64,000 nucleotides of DNA. Source: Escherichia coli. GTDB taxonomy: Bacteria > Pseudomonadota > Gammaproteobacteria > Enterobacterales > Enterobacteriaceae. The notes beneath the pieces were generated by a model. The model made no database searches and was not told where the DNA came from. It was given only the letters and a program-made list of their open reading frames with translations. Positions 1-49,023 of this stretch are shown one piece after another; position 1 is the first letter of the stretch, and each line of letters starts with the position of its first letter. The position numbers were made by a program, and so were the translations under genes. The stretch lies in NCBI RefSeq assembly GCF_044647545.1, contig NZ_CP172818.1, one strand, 5' to 3'.

Positions 1-480
1 CGTTGGTGAAGTGCGGGTTGATTTGCAACGGGAACAGATTCAGCGCATCGAAACCTTGCGGATCGACAATCGGCATATCGTTGGTGGTACGAATGGTTGG
101 GCAAGCAAGGTTAGCGCCTGCGCTCCAGCCAATATACAGCGCGCCACGTTTCACCACGTCAGTAATTGGTGGCAGCAGCCCGCGCTCGCGGCACTGTTTC
201 AGCAACTGGAAAGTATTACCGCCGCCGACAATCACGATCTCAGCATTTTCAATCGCGGCAACGGGATCGACAACGCTATGAATACCGGTGACAGAAACAC
301 CCAGCGGAGCGAGAACCGCAGCCGTTTTCGCTGTGTAATCATCCCAGGTCTGCGTTACGCCAGCGAAAGGAATAAATACCGCTGAACGGCGACCCTGCAA
401 CTGTTCAGCAATCAGCGGCAGCGCGTGTTCCAGCCAGGCTTTACCCGGCAGCGTCGAGTTACTCAATAAAAGCAGTTCCA
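1..480 (-). CDS. pepE: Peptidase E (alpha-aspartyl dipeptidase), N-terminal ~160 codons; rest of gene lies beyond window start
   Basis: Reverse complement of 1-480 translates [30 protein letters not shown]...; ATG at 478-480 (complement) with GGAG upstream; recognised as PepE from memory. Not in ORF track because no stop in window. Confidence 0.9.
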
Positions 481-609
481 TTACTTCTCCGGTTAGTAAG
501 AAATCACGGGAGCCATGCTACCACTGTGATTTTAACCGCTTACTGACATGGCTCACGATGTTGCGCATTGCTTCTGGAAAGGATTTCCAGACGCAGGTCA
601 CGAATTTCC

Positions 610-3600
610 ATAAAACCAGACTGTTTTTTCATAAACACTCATTTACGATGACCCCCATCTCCCGAAAATCAGACAAACCACCATTACCGATAATCCCTAA
701 ACAAACACGAAAATCACCATACCGTTAATTTTTTTTTACAACGTACCATCACACTCAAACCACCCACAATCCACAAACTCGAAATGTCTTACTCATATAT
801 CACCACCCAGCGTTTGTAAACCATAACCAGTTGACGATTCCATTTTCACCATACCCCATTACAAACACCCAAACGAGCCCTCGTCATTTTTCACAAATTA
901 CCCCATATCGCTACGATATTCACCCCTTTACGAAACCCATTCACCCATACCATTTCATTTCAACGTACTGCATTGAAAATAAAAAAACACACCATATTCC
1001 AAATCCAAATCGCCACCCGTAACCCACGTTCCCCAACCATGACCCAACACCTCCAACGGTCCCATCAGCGACTTTATCCGTTAATTACCGTCATCAATTT
1101 CCCGCGTTCTCGCGCCTCTTCCATCGCATACGCCGATGACCCCACATACCCGTGTATTAAAACACCAGTTCCCTACCCCAACCTGATCCTCTTTTAATTA
1201 AATCGTTTGATCGATCATTCGTACAAAAACCCACCCGTGAATACTTCAAATTAAAGATGCCTTTCATACGCAAAACATGCTCACCAACCTCTTAATTTTT
1301 CTCTGTTCCATGATCTCCGTTAATCATCAATTCAACGTGATATTTCTGATGTTTCACTTTACCCACTGTGATTTAACTGATGTAACACCATGATCACGCA
1401 CGCCACCGAACCCACAGACTAACAGTACCACCTCAGAAACCGAGAAAAAGAAAGCATCAAATATTTCACCCCATCATCGAACACCATCGTAACCGACCAC
1501 CACGATAAAACCCCACAATCTCATCCAGGGTCACAAATCGAATCGCTCACATATTTTTATCATACCGCTACGAACAGCGAACAATCATCCGAACCAACGC
1601 CAATCTCACCCAACGCGAACATGCAGAATACAATCGAAACGTGTTCTTCCGCTGCTTTATCCGCCGCGTGCTGAAACTACGTGATTACCAAACACCGTCA
1701 CACCTCCTCCCACCAACAACGCGATCGATTCCTCGATGCTTTCTACCAACGATAACCAAATCGGAGATTATGCCGATCAGAATCCAAATCCCCCGCCGAG
1801 TTCATCCACCAACTATCAATTCCACGTACCACCACATAATTCGTTTTTAAATCACCAAATTAAACCAATCACCTACACAATTAACGACGATGATCTGAAA
1901 TTCATCCACACTCCCATTCCGCAATACAAAAAAAAAATATACAATAATTTTATACTTATTTCCATGATTTTCACCTTTTAATTCTCATCCCTCCTTTAAA
2001 CATATGTACACACGCTATTATTTAATTTGATTAATGTTCGTTTATTTTTCGATAATATTGATTAGATCTACCTACGAGCGTAAACCATATACCCAAGATT
2101 ATTTAATCATGAAACGTTAATAACTCATCTAATGAAATCTTTTTAACTGTTTCTTACCAAGTCACCATACCCCAATATTCATACCTATTTTTACCCCTCG
2201 AACCATTCTAACATCTTTCGATGAAAAGATAAAAAAGTTTCGTCCTATATTCGGGTTTGATAATCCGCGACGGCTTTTTCATATTACCACGTTAACCTTC
2301 ATTCCCGTCGCACCTACGCAATAATGTCCGGCGAATTCATCGTTATAAATTCGTCATTGCAGATAATAATGCGTTCGTTACCACTTTAACCAACGGTATA
2401 CCTCCGTGATCACGTCATCAATCCACGTAATGTTCATCAAAATCCTCCTCCGCTGTTCCACCTGTCTCCAACGACGCAGATTTCTTTCGATTTCTCCGTT
2501 CACAGAAATCCATCAATATTCATGCTTCCTGTTATCAACCATTCACCCACGCAGAGAAAGCCGCTGATTACCCCAACGAGATTCGCATCCAACATCGCTC
2601 CCATTCCACGGGCTCCGCACTGTAAACCACCAATCACCATCATCTTGATTTAATCTTACGTACTTTTCCACTTTCTACGATGTCTCCCGTTCTCGCCGCA
2701 CAAATTCAACCCTCGACCTCATCCGTATATCTAACTGATTCCACATCCAACTAATTTCCATCGCAAAAAATGCATTACCATAAAACCTGATCGTTTTTCC
2801 GCCCGCAATGTTATTTACTCCGTATAACCCGTTCAACACAGATAACAAACAAAATCACCATTCTCTAATCTTCCCCCCCAAAAATCGTTTTTTATACCTT
2901 CACGCACTGCTCGACGTGATATTCCGTCCACCCACCTTCTTCATATTCCCGTCCATCCTGTTTTTTCCAGAATCCCCCGCGATACCGACCACACGATACC
3001 GTCTTACCCATTCTTTCGACCAGACGATGAAGCTATTACGCACTTTATCGCGTACACTCTCCTTCTACCTTCCACCGACTTTCTAGAAACATTCACAATC
3101 ACCATGTGTTGTTCTACGTACCGTCCCCACCCTCGACATCAGAAAAAGTTTTTTATATACCATTTTTTCGAATCACTTCGTTATTCATACTCCCCACCTT
3201 TCTCATCACCACAACCGAAATTACCCGTTATTACCAACTCGATCACAAAATGATAATTTCTCTATATATTTACCTCTTCGCTTAGATTTCCCAAAATGAT
3301 ACCTTTACGATTCATATTTCCACCCACTAATATCACATCTTACATCCTTTCTAATAATTCACCACAACCAACCAATCCGACCATACAATAATATTTTACC
3401 AAATTTAAATTTCATAAACAATATTTTAGATAATAGACCCGTAATTTTTATATAAACATCGAAATTTTTATTCATAAATTCACTTTTATAAAAATTAATA
3501 TATTTTCCACCATGCAAACAATCTTATTTTTCTTCACCACAAGCCAAATGGAATATCTTTTTAATTTATTCATTCGATAAGATGTTTTTTCTCATATTCG

Positions 3601-4300
3601 TTTCAACCACCGTAATATCAAAAAACCGAGCAAATACGCCAGCAACCCGGGCATTCATCTCACTCTCTTCACCACCATAAAACCATCCATACCCTCCGAA
3701 TCCTACCAATTCCCACCACGACATCCAATTACCCATACAAATTTTTAAACCTAACTCATATCCCAACGAATTAATTTATCCACAACCGGAAAATCCCGAA
3801 TCGATTCCCCTTTCAACTCCCCTGTATTAATTTTTACATAACGCTTTCGATTTACCACGTCCGCCAATAATACCAGATTAACTCCCGATTCCCCCCCGCA
3901 ATTTTCAACATCCTCACCCCCCAGGAAAAACCAACAAACCCATCCACAACGACCACATCCCCTTAACCCCACACCCATTATCTCTTCATCCTCATCATTT
4001 CCCGACACACACAACTCTTTCAGCCAAACTTTTCTTCATCCCCACCAAGATTTTCTTATCATATACGATACAATTCCTCGACCCCTTTTAACAACTACGG
4101 TAAAACCACCCCGATCCCCTCATACCCAAAATCAACCACAATCAAACAATCTCACTTTTTCCATCCCTCTTTCCACATGCAAAACCTTTCCACCACGAAA
4201 ACACAGACTTTCAAACGATTTTTCACTCAAGAAAACGCTTTCTCCACATTTTTTCCAACACACACACACATTCAATATTGATTATCTTATTGCCACAAAA
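610..4300. other. Anomalous ORF-free, G-depleted (+ strand) block of ~3.7 kb between pepE and rluF; identity unknown
   Basis: Six-frame track shows only ORFs of 92 codons or fewer here; hand counts of several 60-nt lines give 2-7 G per 60 nt versus ~15 per 60 in flanks; A and C dominate. Boundaries approximate (left ~605-650, right ~4270-4310). Confidence 0.6.
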
Positions 4301-4422
4301 TTATCTATTTCCGGATACTTCTGTGATAAAAGCGGGCAGATCACATTAATTTCACGTTGCCTCATAACCCTTTTTTATCAACCCAAGAGGTACGGTATAT
4401 TCCGCGTTTTACAGGAGAATTT

Positions 4423-5358
4423 ATGCTGCCCGACTCATCAGTCCGTTTAAATAAATACATCAGCGAAAGCGGAATTTGCTCACGCCGCGAAGCGGATCGC
4501 TATATCGAGCAAGGCAATGTGTTCCTTAATGGCAAGCGAGCCACCATTGGCGATCAGGTGAAACCCGGCGACGTTGTGAAAGTAAACGGTCAGTTGATTG
4601 AGCCTCGGGAAGCCGAAGATTTGGTACTTATCGCCCTGAACAAGCCCGTCGGTATTGTCAGCACCACCGAAGATGGCGAGCGCGATAACATTGTCGATTT
4701 CGTTAACCACAGCAAACGCGTGTTCCCGATTGGCCGCCTGGATAAAGATTCCCAGGGGCTGATTTTCCTCACCAATCACGGCGATCTGGTGAATAAGATC
4801 CTCCGTGCGGGTAACGATCATGAGAAAGAGTATCTGGTGACGGTTGATAAACCGATTACCGATGAATTTATTCGTGGTATGGGGGCGGGAGTACCGATCC
4901 TCGGGACGGTAACTAAAAAGTGCAAAGTCAAAAAAGAAGCACCGTTTGTCTTCCGCATTACCCTGGTGCAGGGGCTGAACCGTCAGATTCGTCGCATGTG
5001 CGAGCACTTTGGTTACGAAGTGAAAAAGCTGGAACGTACGCGCATTATGAACGTCAGCTTAAGCGGCATTCCGCTGGGTGAGTGGCGCGATTTAACCGAC
5101 GATGAGTTAATCGATCTCTTTAAGCTCATTGAAAATTCCTCTTCCGAGGCAAAACCTAAAGCGAAGGCCAAACCGAAAACGGTAGGCATCAAACGTCCAG
5201 TCGTTAAGATGGAAAAAACGGTGGAAAAAGGCGGTCGCCCGGCGTCCAACGGTAAGCGTTTTACCTCGCCGGGGCGTAAAAAGAAGGGGGATCAGCGCCT
5301 GCCGCGCGTCGACGTATTTGCTGACCAGCTAAATGACGCCTCAGGATCCGGTTTATAA
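4423..5358 (+). CDS. rluF: 23S rRNA pseudouridine synthase RluF (S4 domain plus pseudouridine synthase domain)
   Basis: ORF 4357-5358; protein [45 protein letters not shown]... from ATG 4423. Frame as read here is 311 codons and overlaps yjbD; from memory K-12 RluF is 290 aa, so the 3' end is uncertain. Confidence 0.85.
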
Positions 5359-5564
5359 GCCTGCTTTTTCTTCAATTGGCGGGCTTTTTTCGCTTCAGCC
5401 TCACGCTCGACCATTAATTTATCGATGTACTCTTTCTTAATGCTGTTAGTTTCGGAGTTGGTCAGTACGCGACCATGCGCAATCCGCGCCCGATCCAGCA
5501 GTGTTTTAAGTTCACGCTGCTCGCGTTCAGTCATCTCTTTTTGGGTAATACGGGGGAGTGCCAT
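5292..5564 (-). CDS. yjbD: Small conserved protein YjbD (DUF3811)
   Basis: 90-aa [37 protein letters not shown]...; position between rluF and lysC. Confidence 0.8.
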
Positions 5565-5815
5565 GATGGTGCCCTCAGTGAGCCAGAGAGTTCAGTGTAC
5601 GGGAATTCGTTTGCGAGCAGAACTGATAATATTCATTTTGCCTTCTCTTAACTATTTATCTCTTTCGATAATTAGCGATAAATACAGATAAAAATTTAAC
5701 GCAAATTATTATCCGATAAAGACGCTGGTTAACAGAGTACAGGCTCGTTTATTGATGAGCATAGTGACAAGAAAATCAATACGGCCCGAAATATAGCTTC
5801 CAGGCCATACAGTAT

Positions 5816-7165
5816 TTACTCAAATAAATTAAAATGCAGCTTCTGCACCACCTGCTCGGCATCTTCGCCGGGCACCAGGAAGCACAGGTTATGGCTGGAT
5901 GCGCCGTAACAAATCATGCGAATGTTGAACGGTTCCAGTACGCCGAATACCTCTTTGCCAACGCCGCAGGCTTTTGACAGGTCATTGCCAATCAACGCGA
6001 CCAGCGCCAGACCTTCCTCCACTTCTACCCGGCATAGTGCAGACAGCTCCATCAGCAGAGATTGCGTCAGCAACGTATCGCCAGTGGAGGTTGAACCGGT
6101 GGTATCAAGGGTTAATGCCACGCTCACTTCTGACGTGGTGATTAAGTCTACCGAAATATTATGCCGCGCGAGGATGCCGAAAACTTCCGCGAGGAAACCG
6201 CGAGAATGCAGCATATTCAGGCTGTGCAAAGTGAGCAGAGTCTGATTGCGACGAAGCGCCAGCGCGCGGAACAGCGGCGGATTTTCAGTTTTATTGCACA
6301 CCAGCGTACCACCTGCGCGTGGGTCTTTGCTGGAGCCGACAAAGACCGGGATATCGCTGCGTACTGCGGGTAGCAACGTTGCCGGATGCAGTACTTTTGC
6401 ACCAAAAGTTGCCATCTCTGCCGCTTCGGCAAACGCGATTTCATCAATGCGTTTTGCTGCGGAAACCACGCGTGGATCGGTGGTGTAGATGCCAGGGACG
6501 TCGGTCCAGATATCAACACGAGTTGCGTGTAAAGCCTCCGCCAGCAAGGCTGCCGTATAATCGCTGCCTCCACGGCCAAGCGTCGTTGTACGACCTTTAT
6601 TTTCGCTACCGATAAATCCCTGGGTGATCACTAAGCCTTCATTGAGGCGTGGGAGCAGCTGCAGCGCGGCCAGTTCCGCCAGCGCGGCTACATCTGGCTC
6701 TGCACGACCAAATCGGTCGTTGGTACGCATCACTTTACGTACATCAAACCACTGTGCCTGAACATCGCGTTCGCGCAGGATTTCGACAAACAGCAGGGTC
6801 GACATCAGCTCGCCGTGGCTGACCAGTTCATCTGTCAGCGCCGGAGACGTTGCCAGCGCCGCCGCTTCTGCCAGAACAGTAATGTTCTCCAGCAGACGTT
6901 CAATCTCTTCACGGATAACGTTCGGGTAACGCAGACGTTCCAGAATGGCAAACTGGATATTGCGGATTGCGTCGAGTTTTTCGAATCGCTCGCCAGGTTC
7001 CAGTCCTTCAGCTAAAGCGACCAGCAGATTAGTGATACCAGCAGAAGCCGAGAGGACAACTAAACGCACGTTGGCATCAGAAAGCACAATATCAGCGCTG
7101 CGGTTCATGGCGTCAAAATCAGCTACGCTGGTACCGCCAAATTTGGAGACAACAATTTCAGACAT
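5816..7165 (-). CDS. lysC: Lysine-sensitive aspartokinase III
   Basis: 449-aa ORF MSEIVVSKFGGTSVADFDAMNRSADIVLSDANVRLVVLSASAG...; full-length match to LysC from memory. Confidence 0.97.
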   Translation of the reverse strand: MSEIVVSKFGGTSVADFDAMNRSADIVLSDANVRLVVLSASAGITNLLVALAEGLEPGERFEKLDAIRNIQFAILERLRYPNVIREEIERLLENITVLAEAAALATSPALTDELVSHGELMSTLLFVEILRERDVQAQWFDVRKVMRTNDRFGRAEPDVAALAELAALQLLPRLNEGLVITQGFIGSENKGRTTTLGRGGSDYTAALLAEALHATRVDIWTDVPGIYTTDPRVVSAAKRIDEIAFAEAAEMATFGAKVLHPATLLPAVRSDIPVFVGSSKDPRAGGTLVCNKTENPPLFRALALRRNQTLLTLHSLNMLHSRGFLAEVFGILARHNISVDLITTSEVSVALTLDTTGSTSTGDTLLTQSLLMELSALCRVEVEEGLALVALIGNDLSKACGVGKEVFGVLEPFNIRMICYGASSHNLCFLVPGEDAEQVVQKLHFNLFE

Positions 7166-7189
7166 AACTACCTCGTGTCAGGGGATCCA

Positions 7190-7470
7190 TTTTCAGCCTT
7201 GGCACAAGGGAAGAGCGGAAGACGGGTGGGCGCAGAGCGATACTTCGCTACTATTTTCACCCAGAAGTGCTCCACCACTTGCGAAACGCCCGACTGCGAA
7301 CGCTTCTGGTGACAACCCAGGGGATTCAGCCCCTGTAGCCGATGATGAACGTGGCCAGCCGTTCAATCACCTCGGCGATGCACCCCCTCAGGTGTTATCA
7401 CAGGACTGGCTCCTCCAACACCGTTACTTGGGCAACGCGCCTCTTCTGGCCTGCGCTAGCGCAGGTAGTA
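7190..7470 (-). ncRNA. lysC leader containing lysine riboswitch (L box)
   Basis: Long 5' leader upstream of lysC on the - strand; minus-strand sequence begins AGAGGCGCGTTGCCCAAGTAACGGTGTTGGAGGAGCC... and contains GCCGAGG and GGGGCUGAAUCCCC, consistent with L-box features recalled from memory. Exact ends not determined. Confidence 0.65.
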
Positions 7471-7689
7471 CATTTATAAATAAAGGGTGAGCGGGGCGGT
7501 TGTCAACGATGGGGTCATGCGGATTTTTCATCCACTCCTGGCGGTCAGTAGTTCAGCTAATAAATGCTTCGCTGCGCTAAGGGTTTACACTCAACATTAC
7601 GCTAACGGCACTAAAACCATCACATTTTTCTGTGACTGGCGCTACAATCTTCCAAAGTCACAATTCTCAAAATCAGAAGAGTATTGCTA

Positions 7690-9339
7690 ATGAAAAACAT
7701 CAATCCAACGCAGACCGCTGCCTGGCAGGCACTACAGAAACACTTCGATGAAATGAAAGACGTTACGATCGCCGATCTTTTTGCTAAAGACGGCGATCGT
7801 TTTTCTAAGTTCTCCGCAACCTTCGACGATCAGATGCTGGTGGATTACTCCAAAAACCGCATCACTGAAGAGACGCTGGCGAAATTACAAGATCTGGCGA
7901 AAGAGTGCGATCTGGCGGGCGCGATTAAGTCGATGTTCTCTGGCGAGAAGATCAACCGCACTGAAAACCGCGCCGTGCTGCACGTAGCGCTGCGTAACCG
8001 TAGCAATACCCCGATTCTGGTTGATGGCAAAGATGTTATGCCGGAAGTCAACGCGGTGCTGGAGAAGATGAAAACCTTCTCGGAAGCGATTATTTCCGGT
8101 GAGTGGAAAGGCTATACCGGCAAAGCAATCACTGACGTAGTGAACATCGGGATCGGCGGTTCTGACCTCGGCCCGTACATGGTGACTGAAGCACTGCGTC
8201 CATACAAAAACCACCTGAACATGCACTTTGTTTCTAACGTCGATGGGACTCACATCGCGGAAGTGCTGAAAAAAGTAAACCCGGAAACCACGCTGTTCCT
8301 GGTAGCATCTAAAACCTTCACCACTCAGGAAACCATGACCAACGCCCATAGCGCGCGTGACTGGTTCCTGAAAGCGGCAAGTGATGAGAAACACGTTGCG
8401 AAACACTTTGCGGCGCTTTCCACCAACGCCAAAGCCGTTGGCGAGTTTGGTATTGATACTGCCAACATGTTCGAATTCTGGGACTGGGTCGGCGGTCGTT
8501 ACTCTTTGTGGTCAGCGATTGGCCTGTCGATTGTTCTCTCCATCGGCTTTGATAACTTCGTTGAACTGCTTTCTGGCGCACACGCGATGGACAAGCATTT
8601 CTCCACCACGCCTGCCGAGAAAAACCTGCCTGTACTGCTGGCGCTGATTGGCATCTGGTACAACAATTTCTTTGGCGCGGAAACTGAAGCGATTCTGCCT
8701 TATGACCAGTATATGCACCGTTTCGCGGCGTACTTCCAGCAGGGCAATATGGAGTCCAACGGTAAGTATGTTGACCGTAACGGTAAGGTTGTGGATTACC
8801 AGACTGGCCCGATTATCTGGGGTGAACCAGGTACGAACGGTCAGCACGCGTTCTATCAGCTGATCCACCAGGGAACCAAAATGGTACCGTGCGATTTCAT
8901 CGCTCCGGCTATCACCCATAACCCGCTCTCTGATCATCACCAGAAACTGCTGTCTAACTTCTTTGCTCAGACCGAAGCGCTGGCGTTTGGTAAATCCCGC
9001 GAAGTGGTTGAGCAGGAATATCGCGATCAGGGTAAAGATCCGGCAACGCTTGACTACGTGGTGCCGTTCAAAGTGTTCGAAGGTAACCGCCCGACCAACT
9101 CCATCCTGCTGCGTGAAATCACTCCGTTCAGCCTGGGTGCGTTGATTGCGCTGTATGAGCACAAAATCTTTACTCAGGGCGTGATCCTGAACATCTTCAC
9201 CTTCGACCAGTGGGGCGTGGAACTGGGTAAACAGCTGGCGAACCGTATTCTGCCAGAGCTGAAAGATGACAAAGAAATCAGCAGCCACGATAGCTCGACC
9301 AATGGTCTGATTAACCGCTATAAAGCGTGGCGCGGTTAA
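7690..9339 (+). CDS. pgi: Glucose-6-phosphate isomerase
   Basis: 549 aa from [25 protein letters not shown]... (ORF track starts 6 nt upstream at 7684). Confidence 0.97.
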
Positions 9340-9355
9340 TTAAAAACCTTAATAA

Positions 9356-9387
9356 CAATGCCGACTATAAGTCGGCATTGTTTTATC
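9356..9387 (+). terminator. Putative intrinsic terminator downstream of pgi
   Basis: Inverted repeat caatgccgact/agtcggcattg followed by ttttatc. Confidence 0.6.
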
Positions 9388-9692
9388 AGATAAATCCTCT
9401 TGTCTGTTATTTAACGAAAATCATACCGTGAGGTTAATCCTAAAATAGATTTTTAATCGTGATTGATTTCGGAAAATACGCAGATTAATTACTTTTATTT
9501 TTATTTTAAGCTTATGATTTTTAATATTATTTATATATAAGTTGAAGCTTATATTTGATATTCATTCCAATTATCCTAAAACCCCATCGCTAATTCCCTG
9601 CGCCGTAATTCGCATGCTTTAGTTGTGTATACTCGATCCCGCCCGAAATGTTTTTGGGTAAATCTCCATTCATTCAATGAAGGGAAATTGTT

Positions 9693-9935
9693 ATGAAAAA
9701 AGTTCTGTATGGCATTTTTGCCATATCTGCGCTTGCGGCGACTTCTGCGTGGGCTGCACCTGTACAGGTGGGCGAAGCGGCAGGATCGGCAGCAACGTCG
9801 GTTTCGGCGGGGAGTTCCTCCGCGACCAGCGTCAGCACCGTAAGCTCGGCGGTGGGTGTCGCGCTCGCGGCAACCGGTGGCGGTGATGGTTCTAATACCG
9901 GGACCACAACAACCACGACCACCAGTACCCAGTAA
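9693..9935 (+). CDS. yjbE: Small secreted Ser/Thr/Gly/Ala-rich protein YjbE (yjbEFGH operon)
   Basis: 80-aa [24 protein letters not shown]... with signal peptide and low-complexity S/T/G tail. Confidence 0.85.
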
Positions 9936-10048
9936 TAAAGTATGTATCCCCAAAATAATTCGAGTCATTGCATCTGTGGCTTGAAGTATGAAGGGATTTA
10001 CCATAACCACACTCCGGTGTGGTTATTCTGCCCCTCTGGAGAAGAGTC

Positions 10049-47436: not shown

Positions 47437-49023
47437 ATGAGTCATCGTGCACGACACCAATTACTGGCGTTGCCGGGCATTATCTTTTTAGTTCTCTTTC
47501 CCATCATTCTGTCGCTATGGATTGCCTTCTTTTGGGCAAAATCAGAAGTGAATAATCAGCTCCGAACCTTTGCTCAGCTGGCGTTGGATAAATCTGAGCT
47601 GGTCATTCGTCAGGCAGATTTAGTGAGCGATGCAGCTGAACGCTATCAGGGGCAAGTTTGCACCCCAGCCCATCAAAAGCGAATGTTGAATATTATTCGT
47701 GGCTATCTTTATATTAATGAATTGATCTATGCCCGTGATAACCATTTTTTATGCTCATCGCTGATAGCGCCTGTAAACGGCTATACGATTGCACCGGCCG
47801 ATTATAAGCGTGAACCTAACGTTTCTATCTATTATTACCGCGATACGCCTTTTTTCTCTGGCTATAAAATGACCTATATGCAGCGGGGAAATTATGTGGC
47901 GGTCATCAACCCTCTCTTCTGGAGTGAAGTGATGTCTGATGATCCGACATTGCAATGGGGTGTATATGATACGGTAACGAAAACCTTTTTCTCGTTAAGC
48001 AACGAGGCCTCGGCAGCAACGTTTTCTCCACTGATTCATTTGAAGGATTTAACTGTACAAAGAAATGGCTATTTATATGCGACAGTTTATTCGACAAAAC
48101 GCCCAATTGCGGCCATTGTTGCGACTTCATATCAACGTCTTATAGCGCATTTTTATAATCATCTTATTTTTGCGTTACCCGCCGGTATTTTGGGGAGTCT
48201 TGTTCTGCTATTACTCTGGCTACGTATTCGACAAAACTATTTGTCTCCCAAACGCAAATTGCAACGCGCCCTCGAAAAACATCAACTTTGCCTTTATTAC
48301 CAGCCAATAATCAATATCAAAACAGAAAAATGTATCGGGGCTGAAGCATTGTTACGTTGGCCTGGTGAGCAGGGGCAAGTAATGAATCCGGCAGAGTTTA
48401 TTCCGCTGGCAGAAAAGGAGGGGATGATCGGACAGGTAACTGATTATGTTATTGATAATGTCTTCCGCGATCTGGGCGCATACCTGGCAACACATGCCGA
48501 TCGCTATGTTTCTATTAACCTGTCGGCCTCCGATTTTCATACGTCACGGTTGATAGCGCGAACCAATCAGAAAACAGAGCAATACGCGGTGCGTCCACAG
48601 CAAATTAAATTTGAAGTGACTGAACATGCATTTCTTGATGTCGACAAAATGACACCAATTATTCTGGCTTTCCGCCAGGCTGGTTACGAAGTGGCAATTG
48701 ATGATTTTGGTATTGGCTACTCTAACTTGCATAACCTTAAATCATTGAATGTCGATATTTTGAAAATCGATAAATCGTTTGTTGAGACGCTGACCACCCA
48801 TAAAACCAGTCATTTGATTGCGGAACACATCATCGAGCTGGCGCACAGTCTGGGGTTAAAAACGATCGCTGAAGGCGTCGAAACTGAGGAACAGGTTAAC
48901 TGGCTGCGCAAACGCGGCGTGCGCTATTGCCAGGGATGGTTCTTTGCGAAGGCGATGCCGCCGCAGGTGTTTATGCAATGGATGGAGCAATTACCCGCGC
49001 GGGAGTTAACGCGCGGGCAATAA
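47437..49023 (+). CDS. pdeC: c-di-GMP phosphodiesterase (CSS-motif sensor plus EAL domain)
   Basis: ORF 47428-49023 (TTG); ATG at 47437 gives [25 protein letters not shown]...; C-terminal EAL domain motifs (EALLRWP, KIDKSFV). Confidence 0.92.

Follow-up and report, generated by a model that had tools for sequence, protein, structure and literature searches.

Gene content of the locus

The window analyzed here, i.e., the whole 64,000-nt stretch of the Escherichia coli contig NZ_CP172818.1 (RefSeq assembly GCF_044647545.1), contains a G-poor block that extends from position 607 to ~4300-4360. In this block G makes up 9% of the bases and the GC skew lies between -0.4 and -0.77 (200-nt sliding profile and direct counts), and it alone within the 64 kb shows a G fraction below 0.12 in 300-nt windows. 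On the evidence of its sequence, the block (607 to ~4361) is a copy of the E. coli L-sorbose PTS operon that lies on the minus strand and has ~70% of its G missing, and it is no genetic element in its own right. The features of this region are collected in Table 1.

Table 1. Features at the pepE-rluF locus and in its flanks. Gene coordinates in the window were mapped from the intact reference operon L001; base fractions are those of the window.
Feature	Position	Strand	Description
pepE	1..480	-	Only the 5' part is present, as the window starts within the gene; positions 1-577 show 100% identity to L018/L022, which have pepE annotated there
Left junction	571..606		Base-level chimera: 5' end of sorE as in sor+ strains, mixed with the sor-less scar found in K-12 and ATCC 8739
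Whole block	607..4361	-	G-depleted copy of the L-sorbose PTS operon: sorE' stub, sorM, sorA, sorB, sorF, sorD, sorC
sorM remnant (PTS EIID)	669..1311	-	From L001 2585-3409; frame destroyed
sorA remnant (PTS EIIC)	1320..1965	-	From L001 3420-4217; its 5' end (1930-1965) opens the AT-rich segment 1930-2460
AT-rich segment	1930..2460		A 0.31, C 0.24, G 0.105, T 0.35, AT 0.66; chi-square versus remaining block, p = 3e-6
sorA-sorB spacer	1966..2021	-	Native GC 0.415
sorB remnant (PTS EIIB)	2022..2437	-	From L001 4283-4777; no gene of the intact operon is richer in AT (native GC 0.448); G retention 0.44
sorF remnant (PTS EIIA)	2437..2781	-	From L001 4777-5184
sorD remnant (SDR oxidoreductase)	2789..3415	-	From L001 5194-6000; 5' end lies within the AT-rich segment 3380-3600
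AT-rich segment	3380..3600		A 0.38, C 0.16, G 0.054, T 0.41, AT 0.79; chi-square versus remaining block, p = 3e-9
sorC-sorD spacer	3416..3467	-	Native GC 0.377
sorC remnant (SorC-family regulator)	3468..4164	-	From L001 6070-7017; 3' end (~3468-3600) natively of GC ~0.37
Remaining block			A 0.31, C 0.34, G 0.09, T 0.26, AT 0.57
rluF upstream region	4362..4422	+	Mixture, at base level, of the sor+ allele and the K-12-type allele
rluF	4423..5358	+	A 4-nt deletion cluster at 5289-5290 takes away the stop codon; ORF of 311 aa versus 290
K-12 piece	5716..5814		99 nt, 99/99 identical to K-12 MG1655 (L023)

Using megablast with positions 600-4400 as the query against the 5426 complete E. coli genomes in RefSeq, we found the same locus in 2865 genomes at ~79% identity, with 3434 nt of the window aligned to 4312 nt of the reference, and at least 80% of the block is present and collinear in 834 of these. 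The RefSeq annotation beneath the match names a SorC-type regulator, an SDR protein (sorD), EIIA, EIIB, EIIC, EIID and sorE, and the Pfam families of the called genes concur (EIID-AGA, EII-Sor, PTSIIB_sorb, EIIA-man, adh_short and Sugar-bind). The setting is that of the E. coli chromosome, with pepE (minus strand, to 480) on one side of the block and rluF (plus strand, from 4423) on the other, followed by yjbD, lysC and pgi. Enrichment of sor, a known accessory operon, in pathogenic sequence types and lineages has been described (PMC12817954), and the block matches the sorCDFBAME operon of E. coli and Klebsiella pneumoniae in chromosomal site, gene order and orientation. Its longest common subsequence (LCS) with the intact operon, as found in strains FDAARGOS_497, 98218 and CM128545, takes in 98.8% of the bases of the block, versus 70-71% for shuffled or unrelated DNA controls. 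Compared with that operon, the block lacks ~22% of the bases (70% of the G) and any sor ORF, the longest open reading frame being 92 aa; sorE is absent save for its first ~50 nt, and the neighboring aroE-like gene is absent too.

A base-specific loss on one strand

Relative to the intact operon, 4882 nt have become 3838 nt in the window through the loss of 799 G, 145 T, 130 C and 13 A, i.e., one base in 4.5 on average, with ~4.9 kb of intact DNA shrunk to ~3.8 kb. Read as plus-strand text, the block has thereby lost ~70% of G, 12% of T, 10% of C and 1% of A (retention of 0.295 for G, 0.88 for T, 0.90 for C and 0.99 for A). Alignment to the intact operon demonstrated that the differences are almost all gaps and that the gaps are at G, and when G was stripped from both sequences, 3439-3470 bases matched, with just 21-37 mismatches. 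Only ~1% of the window bases do not belong to the common subsequence, and these are small differences resembling substitutions or insertions. Depletion sets in sharply at 607-609 and tapers on the right side between 4300 and 4375, and the lengths of the deleted runs are near those of an independent base-specific model. From these comparisons, the block looks as if an almost pure per-base deletion channel had been applied to the plus strand, and since C is not hit the way G is, the loss appears to have acted on a single strand or at the level of the text.

The survival of G depends on its context, with retention of 0.76 in CGA and 0.6-0.7 in CGT, versus 0.06 in AGC and 0.02 in AGT. Residual autocorrelation of G loss at lag 1 is weak (r = 0.165), and regional retention drifts between 0.12 and 0.60. 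With its context dependence, autocorrelation and drift, the loss matches no recognized error profile and is not a trivial edit applied uniformly to the text. Codon position has a weak effect, third positions being retained somewhat more, with nothing deterministic about it. A deterministic k-mer rule for the loss of G was also tried and rejected, since agreement rose from 0.55 to 0.72 at most with 7-mers, and this is not how a regex-like edit behaves. The depleted sequence itself is absent from the 5426 complete E. coli genomes by megablast, and there were no matches to a 50-mer of it among GTDB representatives or to a 32-mer in JGI metagenomes.

Flanks and junctions of the block

Outside the block, the window follows a well-sampled clinical sor+ lineage (L018, L022, L004 and strain 98218). 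For example, positions 1-577 are 100% identical to L018, positions 4396-5715 are identical to the lineage save for one 4-nt deletion cluster, positions 5815-15157 show no mismatch to L004, and positions 15000-39000 are 100.0% identical to five RefSeq genomes. A divergent lineage of Escherichia or Shigella (best identity 98.1-98.6%) was considered as the origin of the window and rejected, since split matches had hidden the lineage that is 100% identical. Exact look-ups of LysC and YjbD showed both proteins to be widespread, L004 being among the genomes recovered with LysC. Members of the sor+ lineage carry an intact 7-kb sor locus, in which sorE and the aroE-like gene are present, and between yjbD and lysC they have an 18-kb island; all three are missing from the window. 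Where L022 and L004 carry the island, and between flanks that are 100% L018/L022/L004, the window instead contains the K-12 piece listed in Table 1, which is absent from L022 and L004.

Small deletion clusters relative to the sor+ lineage occur at 5289, 9340, 13914-13917, 14452/14457, 32337, 53594 and 53621; against strain 98218, the window also differs by the insertion of one A at 32343 and, near 32.8-33.7 kb, by a 1-nt insertion and 6 SNPs. MG1655 was compared over window 1-18 kb, and the first four of these clusters, the ones within that part, lie exactly at the breakpoints between the window and MG1655 (5289, 9340, 13915 and 14456), where MG1655 has extra DNA, namely REP elements and xylE.

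Both edges of the block are chimeric at the level of single bases. Direct sequence comparison showed that the left join (CTTCTGG joined to AAAG) is identical to that of sor-less strains, and the sor-less scar of K-12 MG1655 and ATCC 8739 shares with the window this join, the small insertions GGATTT and ACGAATT and the right-hand motif TTTTTTATCAACCC, although in these strains ~45 nt take the place of the 3.8 kb of degraded operon. Neither junction turned up in any other genome or metagenome searched. The left junction was found in no complete E. coli genome in RefSeq, a query with the restored sequence covers at least 80% in no RefSeq E. coli genome, and exact searches with a 29-mer across the junction gave nothing in JGI metagenomes or among GTDB representatives. 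For the region upstream of rluF, the best full-length RefSeq match reaches only 93.2%.

Origin of the depleted block

We consider it likely, at a probability of roughly 0.82, that the block is a sor operon corrupted as an artefact of a reference-guided consensus, with its AT-rich patches being the native texture of that operon. Under this explanation, the window would be the consensus of a strain of the sor+ clinical lineage written onto a K-12 MG1655 scaffold. Against MG1655 the sor operon counts as an insertion, and so it would be the least supported part of such a consensus; probably the data from which it was written had poor support, came in a single orientation and dropped G preferentially. 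Reference-guided assemblies typically place strain SNPs on the structure of the reference, garble or miss insertions, keep sequence found only in the reference and make deletion junctions imprecise. The window resembles such assemblies in all four respects, with its 99-nt MG1655 remnant as the sequence kept from the reference and with imprecise deletion junctions where MG1655 has extra DNA, and what we observe is a unique sequence, a remnant of MG1655 within flanks identical to the strain, and differences that fall at MG1655 breakpoints. A technical origin of the G deletions is thus the most likely one, and a tool or chemistry step would lie behind the selective drop of G. In this last respect the window is unlike errors that can be assigned to reference-guided assembly, because a 3.8-kb insertion with base-specific drop-out of G fits no particular tool or chemistry, and we know of no verifiable named pipeline or chemistry that gives 70% G-specific deletion with ~1% other error over 3.8 kb.

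Two observations sit uneasily with the K-12 scaffold. A scaffold alone leaves unexplained why the 4.9-kb insertion was written at all, and it likewise does not explain the omission of the adjacent 2 kb (the aroE-like gene and sorE) and of the 18-kb island. A consensus of a mixed sor+/sor- population would be compatible with the chimeric junctions, and the data fit an insertion from a single read equally well.

Corruption of a normal sor operon in silico, whether deliberate or accidental and independent of sequencing and assembly (a simulated channel, a planted decoy or a file bug), is in our view unlikely. It would account well for a pure base-specific deletion with run lengths near the independent model, for an effect on the plus-strand text alone, and for the absence of the depleted sequence from all the public collections searched. 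However, the dependence on 3- to 7-mer context and the regional drift are unlike a simple simulator, and the MG1655 signature elsewhere (the 99-nt piece, the clusters at breakpoints and the chimeric junctions) runs across the window, which points to one real pipeline and not to a local edit.

Source of the AT-rich sub-segments

The sequence-only reading had described the composition of this block as one that drifts, with sub-segments at 1930-2460 and 3380-3600 that are richer in AT than its other parts, and both observations are confirmed, the latter by windowed counts and chi-square tests (Table 1). The drift is borne out by the sliding profile, and the search for a single uniform or tandem repeat gave nothing of substance: TRF returned only two trivial two-copy rows in the block (24-34 nt, at 4126-4202), and the repeat search found only chance two-copy families (16-28 nt, 71-94% identity), so that a tandem or cryptic repeat array was rejected. 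The same reading saw visibly more G (~10%) at 2000-2450, correctly so, with 11.8% there versus 9.0% block-wide, although the effect is small. This reading could not recognize the entire block as a G-deleted copy of an operon. Rfam covariance models gave no match at the gathering threshold in positions 1-6000 of the window.

Judged by their collinearity with the intact operon, the AT-rich patches are the low-GC gene, spacers and gene ends that this operon already contains. Segment 1930-2460 comprises the start of sorA, the sorA-sorB spacer and sorB, the coding sequence of which is its bulk, and segment 3380-3600 comprises the start of sorD, the sorC-sorD spacer and the 3' end of sorC. Natively, sorM, sorA, sorF and sorD have a GC content of 0.51-0.54, and a region of 150 to ~300 nt at the 3' end of sorC falls to ~0.37 (100-nt profile). 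The native AT content of the two segments is 0.56 (counterpart of 1930-2460) and 0.62 (counterpart of 3380-3600) versus 0.46-0.49 elsewhere in the operon, and in 150-nt windows the AT content of the block follows that of the intact operon with r = 0.94. The patches therefore appear AT-rich because they correspond to parts of the operon that are natively low in GC, which the loss of G then exaggerated; the extreme values in the window are due to this loss.

The extra G at 2000-2450 has another source. Native G in the counterpart of this stretch is 0.22, versus 0.27 upstream, and the excess is thus not native; 53 of 120 G are retained there versus 276 of 997 elsewhere in the block (Fisher p = 3e-4), so that the slightly raised G content is explained by higher local survival. 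Regional survival of G is 0.44 at 2000-2450, 0.24 at 3380-3600 and 0.19 at 3600-4250, and the drift in composition would be the native profile of the operon overlaid by this regional drift in G survival.

It had also been proposed that the AT-rich sub-segments are promoter-like, bind nucleoid proteins or form a mosaic of differently sourced pieces, which we regard as very improbable. The two spacers (Table 1) are genuine and natively AT-rich intergenic sequence, and a few promoter-like matches do fall in them. The matches inside the AT-rich parts are ordinary ones, however (9/12), and positions 550-4450 hold 10 promoter-like sites versus 11.0 +/- 3.8 in shuffles, so that the promoter scan shows no excess over chance. 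Most of segment 1930-2460 is coding sequence, and the AT contents of 0.66 and 0.79 arise only after the loss of G. Nor, by its sequence, does the block have the character of a promoter-rich or H-NS-type AT-rich island, as sites occur at chance level and the AT tracts are sorB coding sequence, two spacers and gene ends. The mosaic fares no better: the sub-segments are collinear parts of one known operon, of which 834 genomes carry at least 80% of the block, and are not separate modules. Since every sor frame is destroyed, the AT-rich patches have no function in this record. They show how the base composition of a familiar sugar operon ordinarily varies, viewed via a corrupted copy; as a feature they are not real biology but an echo of that operon.

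The block as DNA of a living strain

Scarcely credible is the reading of the block as real DNA, in which a sor operon crippled by the loss of sorE was eroded in vivo by a strand-specific, G-skipping process. For example, an error-prone copy of the operon's transcript or template strand, made by reverse transcription or repair synthesis under a shortage of dGTP and then recombined back, would have rewritten a 4.9-kb transcription unit and left its flanks untouched. In favor of this, the loss is strand specific, and the block coincides roughly with the transcription unit, reaching from a point upstream of sorC as far as the sorE stub. In addition, a sorE deletion mutant shows the strongest growth impairment in L-sorbose broth, and given this impairment, inactivation of the remaining operon could be selected (PMC12817954). 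Against it stand ~1090 single-base deletions in 4.9 kb versus 0 substitutions in ~10 kb of flank (1-577, 4396-5715 and 5815-15157), technical chimerism with MG1655 in the same window, and the absence of the sequence from every other genome or metagenome searched. To our knowledge, no mutational process yields ~1090 single-base deletions beside flanks free of substitutions. A real block would imply a strand-specific G-deleting process not known before, which would be remarkable, and the evidence is strongly against it.

Errors in the source record

For quality control, the source record is seemingly a K-12-guided consensus that misrepresents the accessory genome of the strain. Its errors are a garbled sor operon, the missing sorE, aroE-like gene and 18-kb island, and the lost stop codons of rluF and psiE, and scans for pan-genome content, pseudogenes or compositional anomalies would flag errors of this kind as false discoveries. 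In the case of rluF, an exact-protein look-up found no record of the 311-aa product; the restored 290-aa allele is common.

A K-12 segment within lineage-identical sequence

In the yjbD-lysC spacer, we observe that window 5716-5814 is identical to K-12 MG1655 at all 99 nt. Its left and right flanks, however, show complete identity with a lineage that has, in place of these 99 nt, an 18-kb island with genes for a slipin and a nucleotidyltransferase as well as a phage tail module. The presence of 99 K-12-identical nucleotides inside lineage-identical flanks suggests that an MG1655 scaffold lies behind the window.

The sor-less join

The window lacks approximately 2.0 kb at 577/578 that is carried by its closest relatives (1109-3112 of L018, a sor+ relative locus). 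The missing DNA contains the greater part of sorE together with a gene for an aroE-like shikimate dehydrogenase, and the resulting join is identical to that of the sor-less strains. In two of these strains, K-12 and ATCC 8739, a remnant of approximately 30 nt of the sorE 5′ end is still recognizable in the pepE-rluF spacer (window 565-606; approximately 4150-4350 of L023, the K-12 MG1655 locus). Since this remnant persists, the sor-negative state of K-12 and ATCC 8739 is a deletion scar and not an empty ancestral site.

Deletion clusters and lost stop codons

A 4-nt deletion cluster within window 5285-5360, where relatives read GGGGCGTTAATCAG and the window reads GGGGGATCAG, removes the stop codon of rluF and so gives a 311-aa open reading frame that reads into yjbD. 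MG1655 carries a 135-nt REP-containing insert exactly at this site. An exact-protein look-up found no record of the 311-aa product, and the 290-aa allele obtained when the stop is restored is common. The psiE stop codon is likewise lost, through two 1-nt deletions (C and T) at window 14452-14458 relative to relatives with 0 mismatches; this site is also an MG1655 breakpoint, at which MG1655 contains xylE, a gene absent from the window's lineage.

Further deletion clusters were scored against genomes otherwise identical to the window. The clusters near pgi and between yjbT and psiE, i.e., the two compared with MG1655, coincide with MG1655 indel breakpoints, and the last deletion in the yjcE-actP spacer removes part of a hairpin.

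Further small deletion clusters in the window
Change	Window position	Location
Deletion, 1 nt	9339	3′ of pgi stop
Deletion, 5 nt	13914-13917	Between yjbT and psiE
T deletion (32337) and nearby A insertion (32343)	32337-32343	
Deletions, 6 nt and 12 nt	53594; 53621-53622	yjcE-actP spacer

Differences from strain 98218

The sor+ relative strain 98218 contains an IS1 in pdeC, at window 47518-47526, that the window lacks; the matches flanking this element overlap by 9 nt, which is the target-site duplication. A second IS1 of this strain, located between sorD and sorC, is not reflected in the window. Around the dusA start (window 32807-33689), in a region otherwise identical to strain 98218, the window differs from that strain by a cluster of six SNPs and one inserted nucleotide, which probably reflects normal variation between strains or a short recombined segment.
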